Of a stretch of DNA of 31,263 nt, positions 2,627 through 8,609 are shown one piece after another. Both the position numbers and the translations under genes were made by a program. This DNA is from a virus (taxonomy: Duplodnaviria; Heunggongvirae; Uroviricota; Caudoviricetes), in IMG/VR virus record IMGVR_UViG_2654587588_000015, positions 1 through 31,263 of that record; one strand, written 5' to 3'. The number at the start of each line of letters is the position of its first letter. The first letter of the stretch is position 1. The notes beneath the pieces are model-generated. The model ran no database searches, had not been told where the DNA came from, and saw only the letters and a program-made list of their open reading frames with translations.

Positions 2627-3226
2627 ATGGCGCATATACAACTGGTCAAACAAACCTCTTCCGGATTACTTCTCCCGGCGACGCCGGAGAGTTGCGATTT
2701 TTTGCATCAAATAAAAATAGGCGAGTGGATACACGCAGACTTTAAGCGTGTGCGTAACTACGCATTCCACAAGCGTTTTTTCAAACTCCTGCAATTGGGA
2801 TTCGATTACTGGACTCCGGTCGGTGGGGCGATCACGCCTCGCGAACGAGAACTGCTGTCTGGTTTCGTTGATTACCTGTGTGAATCAGTAGGTCGGGAAC
2901 ACACACCAGCCCTGAGTGATGCCGCAGAGCAATATCTAAATACAGTTGCGACACGCAGAACCCGGGATACGGCATTGCTAAAGTCGTTTGAGGCTTTCCG
3001 CGAGTGGGTAACCATTCAGGCCGGATTTTACACCGAGCATCTTTATCCTGATGGTAGTCGTGGGCGTCGGGCAAAATCTATCGCATTTGCGAACATGGAC
3101 GAAACCGTGTTTCAGCAGGTTTATAAATCTGTACTGAATGTGCTGTGGAACTGGATCCTGTTCCGTAAATTTTCCTCTCCGGAGGAAGTCGAAAATGTGG
3201 CCGTGCAGCTGCTGGAGTTTGCGTAA
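2627..3226 (+). CDS. Lambdoid nin-region protein, DUF1367-like (199 aa)
   Basis: ORF with GGAGA RBS; family assignment from memory of lambdoid DUF1367/YbcN-like proteins, not verified. Confidence 0.6.
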   Translation: MAHIQLVKQTSSGLLLPATPESCDFLHQIKIGEWIHADFKRVRNYAFHKRFFKLLQLGFDYWTPVGGAITPRERELLSGFVDYLCESVGREHTPALSDAAEQYLNTVATRRTRDTALLKSFEAFREWVTIQAGFYTEHLYPDGSRGRRAKSIAFANMDETVFQQVYKSVLNVLWNWILFRKFSSPEEVENVAVQLLEFA

Positions 3227-3516
3227 TGGTGGATTTACGTAAAGCGGCGCGGGGCCAGATGTGCCAGGTCAGAATCCCTGGCTACTGCAATCACAATCCC
3301 GAAACGTCTGTGCTGGCGCATTACCGACTGGCGGGAACGTGCGGAACGGCGATAAAGCCACACGATATGCAGGCAGCGATTGCCTGTAGCTCGTGCCACG
3401 ATTTAATCGACGGGCGGGTAAAAACCAGCGATTACACCAAAGAAGAATTACGCCTGATGCACGCAGAAGGTGTTTTTCGCACACAAGAAATCTGGAGAAA
3501 GGAAGGTTATTTATGA
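3226..3516 (+). CDS. YbcO-like (DUF1364) Cys-rich putative nuclease (96 aa)
   Basis: Start overlaps the upstream stop; multiple Cys/His; sits in the nin region before Q. Confidence 0.6.
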   Translation: MVDLRKAARGQMCQVRIPGYCNHNPETSVLAHYRLAGTCGTAIKPHDMQAAIACSSCHDLIDGRVKTSDYTKEELRLMHAEGVFRTQEIWRKEGYL

Positions 3517-4067
3517 TTTACCCAACGAATACAGGAAAAAGCGGAGAACACCTTCGTCTCACCACGCTGGAAAGTGTCTGGATTCAGGGAAAACTGCGTA
3601 TGTGGGGGCGCTGGTCGTATATTGGTGGCGGTAAGACGGGGAATATGTTCAACCAGTTGTTGACCTCTAAAAAGCTGACAAAAACGGAAATTAACGAGGC
3701 GCTCCGCAGGATGAAAAAAGCAGGTCTGGACAAACCTGAACTTGAGGCTTTTTTGCGGGGTATGATTAACGGCAAGCAAAAGAGCTGGCTGGCACATTGT
3801 ACCGATTCAGAGGCATTAATAATCGACAGGGTTATTGGCGAAGTACTGGCAGAACACCCAGGATTGATTTGTATCCTCCAGCAACGATATGAAGGGAGTG
3901 GGATGACTAAGCGAAAAATGGCTGAATTGCTGAATGATTCACACCCTGAGTGGTGTTACGCCACGTGCCGTAATCGCATAGATGCGTGGTTGAAAATGGC
4001 AGAGTTTATGCTCTATCTGCCGATGCGTGATGCATTCTCTTCCGGGGATTTAAAAACTGTCTGTTGA
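3513..4067 (+). CDS. Late-gene antitermination protein Q-like
   Basis: ATG 3513 overlaps upstream stop (ATGA); gene is immediately followed by a promoter-like element and terminator, upstream of the lysis genes. Confidence 0.6.
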   Translation: MIYPTNTGKSGEHLRLTTLESVWIQGKLRMWGRWSYIGGGKTGNMFNQLLTSKKLTKTEINEALRRMKKAGLDKPELEAFLRGMINGKQKSWLAHCTDSEALIIDRVIGEVLAEHPGLICILQQRYEGSGMTKRKMAELLNDSHPEWCYATCRNRIDAWLKMAEFMLYLPMRDAFSSGDLKTVC

Positions 4068-4093
4068 CTCAATCTGTTATCCGGGGCTATATT
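4064..4093 (+). promoter_or_regulatory. pR'-like late promoter candidate (TTGACT, 18-bp spacer, TATATT)
   Basis: TTGACT at 4064-4069 overlapping the Q stop; TATATT at 4088-4093. Confidence 0.4.
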
Positions 4094-4153
4094 TCCGAAG
4101 CGCCAGCAAAATCTGGCGTCGGGATTGGAACCCCGGATATCGAAACGGTGCAT

Positions 4154-4173
4154 ACCGCGCTGGCGGTTTTTTT
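4154..4173 (+). terminator. tR'-like rho-independent terminator
   Basis: CCGC-GCTG-GCGG hairpin followed by T7. Confidence 0.55.
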
Positions 4174-4336
4174 ATGCGCTAAGCACAGTCACATTCGCGA
4201 TTTATGGCGGGCTGTGTGGGGGCACCGAAAGGTGCACCGGATGTTTCGACCGGTAGTTCCAACCCTGCACAGTTCGCCACCCGATGATTGGAACCTGAAG
4301 GTGGTGAGGTAAAAATTATCGAAACGCGAGGTCGTT

Positions 4337-4900
4337 ATGACTGTTCAAGTTGCTGTCAAAAACCTTTCCCCTGTCACTTATAACCAGATTCCTGTAATCA
4401 CAACTGAGTTACTCGCCCGCCTTTACGGAACAGAAGCAATCCGTATACAGCAGAATCACCATAAAAATAAATCTCGATTTATTGAGGGAAAACACTTCTT
4501 TAAAGCTGTTGGTGATGAGCTCAAAAATTTGCGACTAGTTTTAAACGAGTCGCAAAATGAGGTGAAAATTTCTCCAAAAACCCGCTCCCTCATCCTCTGG
4601 ACAGAACGCGGCGCAGCCCGTCATGCCAAAATGCTCGAAACCGATCAGGCGTGGGATGTGTTCGAAAGACTGGAAGACTGCTATTTCAGACAAAAGGATC
4701 CGTCAGCGCCAGTTTCATGCCAGAAAAGTTACGACACGCGAGTTCTCTGTTATCAGCAAGGCGGTGTCACTGTTTCCACAATTCAGTTGCGGGATGATGA
4801 TATTGTTATTTCCCTTGAGTCATGGCTGGAACTGGCGAGAGCCAATGGTTGGTTTGTTGTTCGCAGAGATAAACTGGTGGAAAGGCTGATGCAGCTTTAA
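4337..4900 (+). CDS. ORF6N/KilA-N-like putative antirepressor or DNA-binding protein (187 aa)
   Basis: N-terminal region resembles recalled ORF6N-type domains; followed by its own terminator. Confidence 0.5.
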   Translation: MTVQVAVKNLSPVTYNQIPVITTELLARLYGTEAIRIQQNHHKNKSRFIEGKHFFKAVGDELKNLRLVLNESQNEVKISPKTRSLILWTERGAARHAKMLETDQAWDVFERLEDCYFRQKDPSAPVSCQKSYDTRVLCYQQGGVTVSTIQLRDDDIVISLESWLELARANGWFVVRRDKLVERLMQL

Positions 4901-4995
4901 AAAAGTTCTTGCAATTTTAGCCATAAACTGCTTCAATTCCAGTACGCTTCGCAAAGCTGTATCGCGAGGCGAATCAAGCGCATGAACTTTACCAG

Positions 4996-5024
4996 AACCC
5001 GCCATTGAGCGGGTTTTGTTGTTT
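4996..5024 (+). terminator. Rho-independent terminator
   Basis: CCCGC-CATTGA-GCGGG hairpin followed by TTTTGTTGTTT. Confidence 0.55.
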
Positions 5025-5037
5025 CTGGAGAACACCC

Positions 5038-5268
5038 ATGAAATTTTATGAATTATCTTCTGATTCCCGATCTCAGGCCAAAATCACACTGGGTCAGTTC
5101 ATTGTGGCTCGGGCTAACCCGGGGGTGGATGATTTTGAAAATTTGGGGCATTGCATCGCTGCCGCGTTTATTGCGATGGAGCGCTATGAAAGCGCCCCTG
5201 AGGTTGGTGAGGGGCGTAGCGGGAACGGAATACCCGTTAATGGCGATCAAAACTCACTTCTTGATTAA
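5038..5268 (+). CDS. Small hypothetical protein (76 aa)
   Basis: ATG 5038 with GGAGA upstream; 3' end overlaps the convergent minus-strand gene. Confidence 0.35.
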   Translation: MKFYELSSDSRSQAKITLGQFIVARANPGVDDFENLGHCIAAAFIAMERYESAPEVGEGRSGNGIPVNGDQNSLLD

Positions 5269-5532
5269 ATGCCATGAGCGATCTGCCGCTTGAGTGACTA
5301 GCACCCGAGGGTTCTTTTTTATTGTCCCAGCGATGGCTACAACTTCTTCTCGGACTGCGCGAGCAGATGCGTTTTTTTCGGCTGTGTACTCAGCGTCTGG
5401 AAGATAAAACCAGTTTCCTGCTCCATCTTGAATTTCGCGAAAGTATCTTCGGGATTCCATCGCCTCATGAAGGCGAGCGTAGTCATCGGATGATGCACCC
5501 ACAAGCTCAACGCGGACAGTAAAACTAGCCAT
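5254..5532 (-). CDS. Hypothetical protein (92 aa), opposite strand to the late operon
   Basis: ATG preceded by AAGGAG at 6-nt spacing on the minus strand; longer track ORF trimmed to this start. Confidence 0.55.
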   Translation of the reverse strand: MASFTVRVELVGASSDDYARLHEAMESRRYFREIQDGAGNWFYLPDAEYTAEKNASARAVREEVVAIAGTIKKNPRVLVTQAADRSWHLIKK

Positions 5533-5749
5533 ATATACTCCTTTAATTGATATGGTTACTTTTGGCGATTTAACGATATCAAACACGAGGATATACCGCC
5601 AGAAGCTTAATCTGGTACTCCATCTGGCCCTGGCATGTCCCGGGGCTTTTTCGTTGTTAGGCTCCGGAAACATCCTCGACTTCTTGTGAGCAAGCCAGAG
5701 AGCCTGAATCTTACATTTAGCACCATCCGAACTTTCGGAGGTGAGGCTT

Positions 5750-6091
5750 ATGAAAATGCACAATGTCCCTCATTCCTGGCCTGACTTACTGGAACTCTTA
5801 CAAAGTTGGTGGCGTGGAGATACGCCGCTGGGTGCAGTGGTTATGTCAATTATTATGGCTGGTTTGCGCATTGCCTATTTTGGCGGTGGCGGCGGCTGGA
5901 AACGAAAAACGCTTGAGATTCTGCTTTGTGGTGCTCTGACGCTGACCTTTGCATCCGCGCTTGAGTATGTCGGATGGCCTAAATCACTTTCTGTTGCCAT
6001 TGGTGGTGGGGTGGGGCTGATTGGTGTTGATGCTATTCGTGGTGCGGCAATGAGGGTCATCGGTAACAAGTTCGGTGCCCATAAGGAGTAA
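5750..6091 (+). CDS. S: Lambda S-like class I holin with M-K-M dual-start motif
   Basis: MKMHNV N-terminus (ATG 5750 and ATG 5756) after GGAGGTGAGG RBS; hydrophobic segments; C-terminal region resembles lambda S. Confidence 0.8.
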   Translation: MKMHNVPHSWPDLLELLQSWWRGDTPLGAVVMSIIMAGLRIAYFGGGGGWKRKTLEILLCGALTLTFASALEYVGWPKSLSVAIGGGVGLIGVDAIRGAAMRVIGNKFGAHKE

Positions 6092-7605: not shown

Positions 7606-8037
7606 TTAGATTAAATTATTTCGATAAGCAGAATCGATTAGAGCGTTCATAAAGAGATACTCAACATCTTCGGTATAGTCGATGTCTATTGGAGCTGTTG
7701 AGTCAAGCGCCCCAAAATGCATGCAATTGTTCCAATCAAGAAAAATTTTATGAAACTCCTGTTTTTTTCCATCTCGCGATGTGTAAAAAGTAATAACCCC
7801 AATTAATGAGCCTTCGTGAAGTGAAAGCTTACTTTCTGTAAAACACTTAAAGCGTAGCTGTGGAATTGAAACCTCAAGCTCTCCATCATTTAGCTCTATG
7901 GAAATTTGCTTATTAAGGTCTCGTTTGTTATTCCATGCGGTGTTAACACGTTCTAATAAATCATTCGTATTTTGCTGTAATAACTCACCTTTCCTAGAAA
8001 GTAACTGTGACAATCCGATAAACGTTAATGAGCTCAT
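7606..8037 (-). CDS. Hypothetical AT-rich cargo protein (143 aa), no TM segment, function unknown
   Basis: Minus-strand ORF, ATG 8037 with AAAGGTGA upstream; low GC relative to flanks; divergent from terS. Confidence 0.55.
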   Translation of the reverse strand: MSSLTFIGLSQLLSRKGELLQQNTNDLLERVNTAWNNKRDLNKQISIELNDGELEVSIPQLRFKCFTESKLSLHEGSLIGVITFYTSRDGKKQEFHKIFLDWNNCMHFGALDSTAPIDIDYTEDVEYLFMNALIDSAYRNNLI

Positions 8038-8057
8038 AAATTCACCTTTGAGAAAAA

Positions 8058-8609
8058 ATGGCACTCACAGACAAGCAAGAGATGTTCTGTCGCGAGTACC
8101 TCATCGATTTAAACGCCACGCAAGCGGCTATTCGGGCGGGGTACAGCGCAAAGACAGCCAACCGTACTGCGTCCGAAAACATGTCAAAACCTGACATCAA
8201 GTTAAGAATCGCTGAACTGAAAGCGCAACGCAATGATCTTGTTGGTATTAATGCAGAATATGTACTTAATCGCCTTATTGAAATCGACCAGATGGATGTG
8301 CTTGACATTCTCCTGCAAAACGGTGAGCTAAAACCCATTAAAGACTGGCCTAAGGTATGGCGCACAACGTTATCAGGAATGGATGTCGTGGAGATGGCAT
8401 CCGCAGATAGCACCGCACTTCTGAAGAAAATCAAATGGCCTGATAAGGTTAAAAACCTTGAGTTGCTTGGGCGTCATGTTTCTGTTCAGGCGTTTAAAGA
8501 CAACATCAAAAATGAAGTGACTGGCGCTGATGGAGGACCAGTCAGAACAGAAATTACCAACTTAACGCCGGAGCAGGCTGCAGAGGCGTATAGAAAAATG
8601 ATGGACTAA
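8058..8609 (+). CDS. Terminase small subunit (Terminase_2-like)
   Basis: N-terminal motif [21 protein letters not shown] typical of this family; immediately upstream of the large subunit. Confidence 0.8.

Follow-up and report, generated by a model that had tools for sequence, protein, structure and literature searches.

Between its genes for a Q-type antiterminator and a holin, the DNA stretch studied here (IMG/VR virus record IMGVR_UViG_2654587588_000015, positions 1 to 31,263; 31,263 nucleotides (nt) in length and hereafter called the window) carries two small genes which run toward each other and overlap at their 3' ends. The window is an Escherichia coli lambdoid prophage, and the pair represents a conserved, mobile module of two genes that is found in temperate phages; in this module the gene reversed against the phage operon encodes a protein related to E. 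coli YmfI. We propose, with a probability of roughly 0.4, that this gene encodes an RNA-directed prophage protein which would be shut off by convergent lytic transcription, and possibly also by the product of the partner gene. The identity and the architecture of the module are solid, and the mechanism is put forward as a hypothesis.

The overlapping gene pair

The first gene of the pair (5038-5268, plus strand) runs from ATG at 5038 to TAA at 5268, encodes 76 amino acids (aa) and is co-directional with the late operon. The second (5254-5532, minus strand) runs from ATG at 5532 to TGA at 5254, encodes 92 aa and is antisense to the late operon. The two share 15 nt at their 3' ends (5254-5268), which are read as NSLLD followed by the stop on the plus strand and as LIKK followed by the stop on the minus strand. 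Each gene is preceded by a ribosome-binding site (RBS): direct reading of the sequence gave GGAG at 5027-5030 on the plus strand, 7 nt upstream of the ATG of the 76-aa gene, and AAGGAG lies at 5543-5538 on the minus strand, 5 nt upstream of the ATG of the 92-aa gene. In identical prophages RefSeq annotates the same two coding sequences, WP_000675202.1 and WP_001519807.1, both as 'hypothetical protein'. An earlier reading of this DNA, made from the sequence alone (the sequence-only reading), had described a convergent pair with this 15-nt overlap at these positions, and the reading of the open reading frames (ORFs) together with RefSeq bears it out. The pair also lies, as that reading had it, between Q (3513-4067) and the holin gene (5750-6091), and the strong AAGGAG on the minus gene and the orientation of this gene against Q-dependent late transcription are likewise as described.

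On the other hand, the sequence-only reading recognised no family for either protein, and on this point it has to be corrected. Both proteins have full-length matches among the PHROGs, the 76-aa protein to phrog_26625 (1-76 of 76, E = 5e-49) and the 92-aa protein to phrog_8894 (1-92 of 94, E = 3e-38); the minus gene also matches the NCBIfam family YmfI_phage below its cut-off, and its relatives weakly match Pfam GhoS. Pairwise comparison with relatives gave ratios of nonsynonymous to synonymous substitution rates (dN/dS) that lay between 0.06 and 0.30 for the 92-aa gene and between 0.2 and 0.4 for the 76-aa gene. Because these values are low, we concluded from the sequences that both genes are intact and under purifying selection and that neither is a decayed fragment; database matches to decayed fragments, which the sequence-only reading had named as a result that would speak against it, were thus not what we found. 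Longer versions of the two ORFs (87 aa from TTG at 5005 and 169 aa from TTG at 5763) were considered and are unsupported, as all homologues begin MKF and MASFTVRVEL, respectively.

The 92-aa protein

The NCBIfam model for YmfI family phage protein (NF051477) matched the 92-aa protein with 59 bits (E = 4.8e-16), residues 1-89 being aligned to positions 1-88 of 89. When a profile of 19 homologues was compared with YmfI of E. coli K-12 by hhalign, the probability was 94.4% (E = 9e-8) over 81 columns starting from residue 1. By these profile comparisons the 92-aa protein is a clear YmfI homologue, though not an equivalog-level member of the family.

The only recurrent Pfam match among the relatives was GhoS (PF11080), which was obtained for 11 of 19 at E <= 1 and, in a larger set, for 27 of 61 at E <= 0.01 (best 3.3e-7). 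The AlphaFold2 model of the 92-aa protein has a predicted local distance difference test score (pLDDT) of 94.7 and a beta-alpha-beta-beta-beta-alpha-beta topology. This is a GhoS-like three-dimensional fold, and GhoS was found by fold comparison only; searches of PDB sequences with single proteins and with family profiles gave no significant match. In two hhalign runs with the same register, Leu21, His22 and Met25 fell on Leu27, Arg28 and Met31 of GhoS, and each of the three residues is conserved in at least 90% of the family. In GhoS, Arg28 is the residue most important for activity, and L25I together with M31L widens the RNase specificity (PMC4010927). The conserved polar residues of the 92-aa family are R7, E9, Y18, H22, E48 and Y49. 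The resemblance to Cas2 is at fold level only: no sequence similarity was detected, and no cas1 gene or CRISPR array is adjacent. We concluded that the 92-aa protein is a distant member of the GhoS/Cas2 fold group, a kinship from which binding or cleavage of RNA by the protein is inferred. The family is large, with 2,387 clusters at E <= 0.001 among 1.84 billion representatives, most of them stand-alone proteins of 92-100 aa and some of them longer gene calls.

Conservation of the reversed arrangement

We compared 92 fetched loci of relatives together with the window, three earlier loci and the prophage e14 of E. coli K-12; counts are given per 96 loci. At 73 of the 96, the YmfI-like gene shares 4-63 nt of its 3' end, mostly 4-30 nt, with a small ORF of the opposite strand, and the overlaps are tight and stereotyped (4, 11, 13, 15 or 24 nt). 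The overlapping ORFs at these 73 loci belong to five recurring partner families which are unrelated to one another: that of the 76-aa protein of the window (31 loci), a 57-aa family (23 loci), a family corresponding to the N-terminal part of YmfJ (11 loci, e14 included), an 80-aa family (6 loci) and a Serratia family (2 loci). In e14, ymfI (plus strand) and ymfJ (minus strand) are convergent and overlap by 63 nt. Since a convergent ORF of a recurring family overlaps the 3' end at 73 of the 96 loci, the arrangement is more than chance, and this is what makes the pair in the window one copy of a conserved module.

The same picture was obtained when the 76-aa family was taken as the starting point. 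Four more of its lineages, from Enterobacter, Citrobacter and Kluyvera, stand directly after Q as the first gene, and in all four the next gene is a convergent YmfI-like gene of 94-95 aa with a 4-nt overlap; the pair is found downstream of three different Q families. At 47 of about 90 loci the closest ORFs of 90 aa or more lay on the opposite strand on both flanks, and therefore the YmfI-like gene is typically a lone reversed gene in a phage operon. The module occupies two kinds of sites, namely the interval between Q and the lysis genes (the window, Klebsiella, Kluyvera and others) and early-left operons (e14, Serratia). Among the 122 nearest ORFs of the downstream operon there were 12 holin matches (5, 4 and 3 to three PHROGs), at least 6 endolysins and 5 Kil proteins.

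The sequence-only reading had compared the interval between Q and the holin gene S (Q-to-S) with the place where lambdoid phages carry cargo such as stx. A variable cargo slot it is; a one-off cargo the pair is not, since it is a widespread conserved module that is found in early-left operons too.

As a separate observation, YmfI-like genes outside phages (Sphingomonadales, Acidobacteria and other metagenome-assembled genomes) are co-directional with their neighbours. Judged by eye, these neighbours encode an AAA ATPase and DndB-like, MBL-fold hydrolase, nucleotidyltransferase and E1-like proteins, a set which resembles a defence island.

Promoter-like motif, leader and terminator-like sites

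Among the relatives, about 100 nt upstream of the YmfI-like start codon are strikingly conserved, and three leader types can be distinguished. The leader of the window is of type A: a conserved box TGATATCGTTAAATCGCCAAAAGTAACCATATC (5546-5581, minus strand) holds the extended -10-like motif TGnTATCGT (TGATATCGT, 5581-5573, minus strand), from which a transcription start near 5566 and a 5' untranslated region of about 34 nt are predicted. The type-A box is near-identical beside YmfI-like proteins which are only 37-49% identical, even beside a very different subtype. The motif TGnTAnnnT is common to all three leader types and was found 39-51 nt before the ATG in 47 of the 73 unique leaders; shuffles led one to expect 6, and the opposite strand also gave 6. 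In type-B leaders the T, the A and the final T of the hexamer are invariant and the middle positions vary, which is the usual signature of a -10 element. A generic promoter scan of the window gave no good -35 element and no full sigma-70 match for the minus gene, and no Rfam family matches the YmfI-like leaders. Because the extended -10 motif keeps a conserved distance from the start codon across relatives, the minus gene may plausibly be expressed in the lysogen. Its candidate extended -10 promoter, strong RBS and short conserved leader suggest that the reversed gene is a small transcription unit of its own.

Two sites resembling intrinsic terminators of the plus strand flank the pair. The first, a hairpin followed by a T run (4993-5028), lies between the ORF6N gene and the 76-aa gene and consists of the 10-bp stem CAGAACCCGC/GCGGGTTTTG and then TTGTTTCTGG; the second (5626-5657), just before the holin gene, consists of GGCCCTGG/CCCGGGGC and then TTTTTCGTTGT. 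The first predicted terminator would insulate the pair from upstream transcription that is not modified by Q, and the second would stop plus-strand transcription lacking the Q modification. The pair is thus bracketed, and only Q-modified polymerase should pass. In relatives, a terminator-like site in the direction of the operon was found 100-136 nt upstream of the ATG in 30 of 73, compared with 10 in the sense direction.

On the minus strand, an 8-bp hairpin (GGGGCGCU/AGCGCUCC, 5178-5198, with one G.U pair) is situated about 55-75 nt past the stop codon of the 92-aa gene, antisense to the codons for MERYESAP of the partner. It is a candidate for the 3' end, or for a stabiliser, of the minus transcript. 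In relatives, a hairpin with a T run on the YmfI strand, at most 150 nt past the stop codon and inside the partner gene, was found in 38 of 75 unique regions, and in 9 on the partner strand.

Structured elements in the leader region

Further structures occupy the region around and upstream of the -10 motif. In the window, a small hairpin CCAG-N9-CTGG (5599-5615) stands between the leader box and the terminator, and its counterparts in relatives covary (for example CCGC/GCGG and GCCTG/CAGGC). Between the operon-direction terminator and the -10 motif, relatives have two interleaved helices with covarying stems, such as GCCTG..CCAC..CAGGC..GTGG, GCCGGG..CCACG..CCCGGC..CGTGG and GCCTG..CAGGGG..CAGGC..CCCTG; the loci concerned are L036 (3900-4003), L042, L046, L051, L083, L099 and the e14 locus L004 (3930-3997). 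In another hairpin, which spans the predicted transcription start, the loop (UUCCACA) is conserved and the stem shows covariation. For type C the covariation score of this hairpin was 0.315, compared with 0.138 in shuffles (0 of 500 reached the observed score), and slid controls were much lower; for type A, double changes were seen in 6 of 14 pairs.

These helices cannot all belong to a sense mRNA that starts after the -10 motif. Read on the operon-direction strand, the interleaved helices have loop lengths that match a classical H-type pseudoknot whose third loop is rich in A, and the terminator follows them. Such a pseudoknot-like element could belong to a structured cis-antisense RNA, or else to the 3' end of the transcript from the partner gene, and the helices of the leader region may represent an undescribed RNA element. 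G.U pairs outnumbered A.C pairs by 27 to 14, counts by which the folding strand is not settled. Both a scan and manual inspection of 5480-5600 gave no convincing plus-strand promoter for an antisense RNA. When RNAalifold was applied to 30 type-B leaders aligned with MAFFT, no structure was returned, the covarying stems being misaligned there. A search for sequence complementary to the leader loop, as the target of a trans-acting RNA would be, found none elsewhere in the window, the C4/isrK region included. The idea that the leader forms a hairpin hiding the RBS is now doubted for the window, where the predicted start near 5566 falls within the hairpin.

In L036 (3938-3995) and in some 30 further type-B loci there are two copies of the 12-nt sequence TTCCACAGTCAA, spaced by about 35 nt. 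One of them covers the predicted -35 region; the other is situated where the mRNA is predicted to begin, and there its TTCC can pair with the GGAA of the RBS.

The 76-aa partner protein

The 76-aa protein is acidic, with an isoelectric point (pI) of 4.6 and a grand average of hydropathy (GRAVY) of -0.29. AlphaFold2 predicted helices at residues 8-25 and 33-49 with pLDDT of about 80-88, and residues 57-76 scored below 50; the C-terminal tail is rich in Gly, Asn and Asp, acidic and predicted to be disordered. Profile comparison showed that the family is unrelated to YmfJ. No Pfam or NCBIfam match was obtained for seven or eight partner representatives, and PADLOC gave no match for the 76-aa or the 92-aa protein.

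The most conserved motif of the partner, AAAFIAMERxxSAP, is encoded by a palindromic hairpin of 8-10 bp (5178-5198). This hairpin pairs better on the YmfI strand, where G.U pairs stand in place of the A.C mismatches of the other strand. What looks like a protein motif may therefore in part reflect a structure at the 3' end of an RNA.

Proposed mechanism

We propose that in the lysogen, where the late operon would be silent, host polymerase makes the YmfI-like protein, and that this protein would act on RNA, as its relative GhoS does. Upon induction, Q (or the early-left promoter in e14-type copies) would fire, and polymerases would cross the partner gene and then run antisense over the whole YmfI-like unit. 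Collision and duplex RNA would silence the YmfI-like gene in the manner of an excludon. The partner would be made meanwhile, and might, we suggest with low confidence, antagonise what remains of the YmfI-like protein. The most likely target, though a speculative one, is the mRNA of the neighbouring killing genes, holin and endolysin here and kil in the early-left versions; leaky lethal transcripts would thus be kept silent in the prophage, as GhoS does with ghoT.

Published data on e14 match the proposed expression logic. Late in the SOS response ymfJ is up by about 4.8 log2 with other e14 genes, and ymfI far less (PMC11002266); and a list of convergent excludons drawn from RNA-seq includes ymfI-ymfJ (PMC12288877).

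If this logic is true, the module is a compact and widespread device which ties a lysogen-only function to the lytic switch via transcriptional collision; if it is false, the pair is still a well-defined, recurrent cargo module of prophages that is worth naming. A more far-reaching version, which we consider doubtful, is that the YmfI family is the large phage-borne parent family of GhoS and a 'guard' module that silences leaky mRNAs of phage killing genes. On induction, three things would switch it off: operon transcription running into it head-on, a structured cis-antisense RNA whose end lies at the conserved operon-direction terminator, and the partner, acting as a small, acidic anti-RNase. 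Were this guard version true, control of the type V toxin-antitoxin kind would be in general use among phages, and not a single curiosity of E. coli.

Several points weigh against the proposed mechanism. With respect to the protein, the match of the 92-aa protein to NF051477 is under the curated cut-off of 140 bits, which E. coli YmfI itself passes with 161.5 bits. Pfam GhoS (PF11080) gives no match to the 92-aa protein even at E <= 1, and hhalign against GhoS alone reaches a probability of only 13-19%. His22 stands at the position of the catalytic Arg28 of GhoS, a provisional assignment because the alignment probability is low. With respect to the transcripts, the hairpin at 5178-5198 has no U tract, the terminator scan of the window found no minus-strand terminator, and covarying hairpins across the predicted start are unexplained by a simple promoter model. 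The partner, for its part, is perhaps incidental, as there are five unrelated partner families; its tail differs from one YmfI-like subtype to another, whereas residues 1-55 remain more than 80% identical; and a common E. coli variant keeps a 90-aa partner with a different C-terminus in prophages without the YmfI-like gene. Finally, the Q-to-S interval and the early-left operon are general cargo slots, so that adjacency to holin or kil may mean nothing.

Comparison with known systems

In the literature searched, no functional study was found of the E. coli K-12 genes ymfI and ymfJ or of the module. To our knowledge, GhoS/GhoT is the only type V toxin-antitoxin system that has been studied. The present analysis links ymfI and ymfJ with GhoS/GhoT. 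The family with the GhoS fold comprises about 2,400 clusters spread through temperate phages, where its genes are nearly always reversed and overlap a small partner, and frequently have lysis or kil genes as neighbours.

The ymfI-ymfJ pair of e14 shares with the pair in the window a YmfI homologous to the 92-aa protein, the convergent 3' overlap and a ymfI reversed inside a phage operon. It differs in its site, which is early-left, between xis and the gene for a cI-like repressor, instead of Q-to-S; YmfJ is unrelated to the 76-aa protein, the leader is of type C, and the 92-aa protein has low identity to its e14 counterpart. In contrast to GhoS/GhoT, no ghoT-like hydrophobic ORF follows the 92-aa gene on the minus strand, and the two genes do not form a co-directional operon; the partner is a soluble, acidic protein encoded convergently, and Arg28 of GhoS aligns with His22. 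The absence of ghoT, the convergent partner and the lack of conservation of Arg28 led us to conclude that the pair is not a GhoS/GhoT system.

Opposed, overlapping convergent units in a setting of lysogeny and lysis are also known from excludons and from antisense control in phages (OOP-cII of lambda, sar-ant of P22). In contrast to OOP-cII and sar-ant, both strands are protein-coding here, and the reversed unit lies inside a late or early-left operon. As regards the overlap expected of an excludon, the genes share 15 nt, and overlap of the transcripts is suggested by the hairpin at 5178-5198 and by the terminators of relatives (38 of 75). The pair occupies the same variable slot as Q-to-S morons such as stx; its reversed gene carries a promoter-like signal and is bracketed by terminator-like sites, and sister prophages have other cargo in the slot. 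Unlike these morons, the 92-aa gene opposes the late operon and recurs with a convergent partner. Taken together, the pair would work most nearly as a convergent pair of the excludon type joined to a GhoS-like protein directed at RNA.

Alternative explanations

The alternative that survives best, although we regard it as rather unlikely, is that the two genes are functionally independent: the 92-aa gene would be a solitary moron landing at the 3' end of any small operon gene, and the overlap would be a by-product of compaction, the upstream ORF simply running to a stop. Five unrelated partner families are what one would expect in that case. The same can be said of a partner tail which is predicted to be disordered and co-varies with the YmfI-like subtype next to nearly unchanged residues 1-55, and of the looser dN/dS of the partner compared with the 92-aa gene. 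In prophages of the E. coli H25 type, exactly 5253-5543 is swapped for a plus-strand 189-aa gene, and the partner survives with another C-terminus. Against independence, the linkage persists over three Q families and several genera, and the convergent gene was present in 5 of the 6 partner lineages examined; the overlaps keep to their few stereotyped lengths (4, 11, 13, 15 or 24 nt), and the partner is small and either acidic or helical in every family.

It seems improbable that the module is a toxin-antitoxin or addiction system, with the YmfI-like protein as a toxic RNase, either the acidic partner or a cis-antisense RNA ending at 5626-5657 as the antidote, and stabilisation of the prophage as the result. 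With a convergent pair of proteins, an antidote confined to the lytic cycle would give the lysogen no protection. GhoS in its wild-type form is not toxic, but two point mutations make it a toxin (PMC4010927), and the Cas2 and VapD relatives are RNases. The acidity of the partner (pI 4.6) is like that of many protein antitoxins; and the structured leader with its adjacent operon-direction terminator would suit a cis-antisense RNA, for which, however, scan and manual inspection found no promoter. PADLOC, moreover, has no match for either protein.

Equally improbable in our estimate is a role in defence or superinfection exclusion, in which the YmfI-like protein would attack the RNA of incoming phages and the partner would be the antidote of the prophage itself at the onset of the lytic cycle. 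The orientation as lysogenic cargo with a promoter-like motif is consistent with such a role, as is the position of the partner as the first late gene after Q in four lineages. Homologues outside phages lie beside genes judged by eye to be defence-like, and a copy in Klebsiella aerogenes is near a gene for a KAP NTPase; yet the PADLOC models gave no match, and no phenotype is described in the literature searched.

That one or both ORFs are spurious or decayed, as their shortness, the purely 'hypothetical' annotation and the lack of a Pfam match might suggest, is hardly credible in view of the full-length PHROG matches, the purifying selection on both, the high-confidence model of the 92-aa protein and about 2,400 clusters of uniform length (roughly 92-100 aa).

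Prophage context and cargo slot

The 861 bases around the pair are 100% identical to the chromosomes of strains R1, IGC_RcoliRes_1.1 and 12089, and the whole stretch is carried by only 18 of 5,426 complete E. coli genomes. Upstream of the pair, a DUF1367 gene (2627-3226) and a DUF1364 gene (3226-3516) precede the Q-type antiterminator gene (3513-4067; Pfam DUF1133, E = 6e-105; Phage_antitermQ). Directly after Q come a promoter-like site (4064-4093), an isrK-family RNA (4100-4173, 72 bits) with a terminator-like site at its end, C4 targets of the a1/b1 type (4087-4139, 44.9 bits, slightly below threshold) and a C4-type antisense RNA (4200-4284, 72.8 bits), followed by an ORF6N (antirepressor-like) gene which ends at 4900. 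This layout (4064-4900) resembles an antirepressor control module of the P1/P7 immI type or the Gifsy-1 IsrK type, placed at the head of the late operon. The next late-operon gene after the pair encodes the lambda-family holin (5750-6091, plus strand; PF05106, E = 3e-27, and a PHROG match), and the endolysin and Rz genes follow downstream.

Sister E. coli prophages, seen in NZ_CP148493 and phage vB_EcoS-473R12, have exactly 5253-5543, that is, the RBS and ORF of the reversed gene, swapped for a plus-strand gene encoding a 189-aa putative membrane protein, and keep the N-terminus of the partner, the leader box and the terminator. Since only the RBS and ORF are exchanged and the flanks are kept, the cassette has sharp boundaries at 5253 and 5543. 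The view of the Q-to-S interval as a cargo site, which the sequence-only reading took from lambdoid phages, therefore agrees with the variation seen in other E. coli prophages. A second cargo in the slot was noticed in the K. aerogenes prophage, where the gene for the KAP-family NTPase (locus L006, 4687-6021) lies between Q and the convergent pair and is reversed with respect to the late operon.

Two other genes of the window may be mentioned. According to the RefSeq annotation of an identical prophage, a gene for a toxin of the Hok/Gef family lies upstream of the DUF1367 gene, at about 1954-2109 of the window. A second gene reversed with respect to the late operon, a minus-strand ORF at 7606-8064, is located between the Rz and small terminase genes; its RefSeq version is shorter and encodes a hypothetical protein of 90 aa (about 7812-8084).

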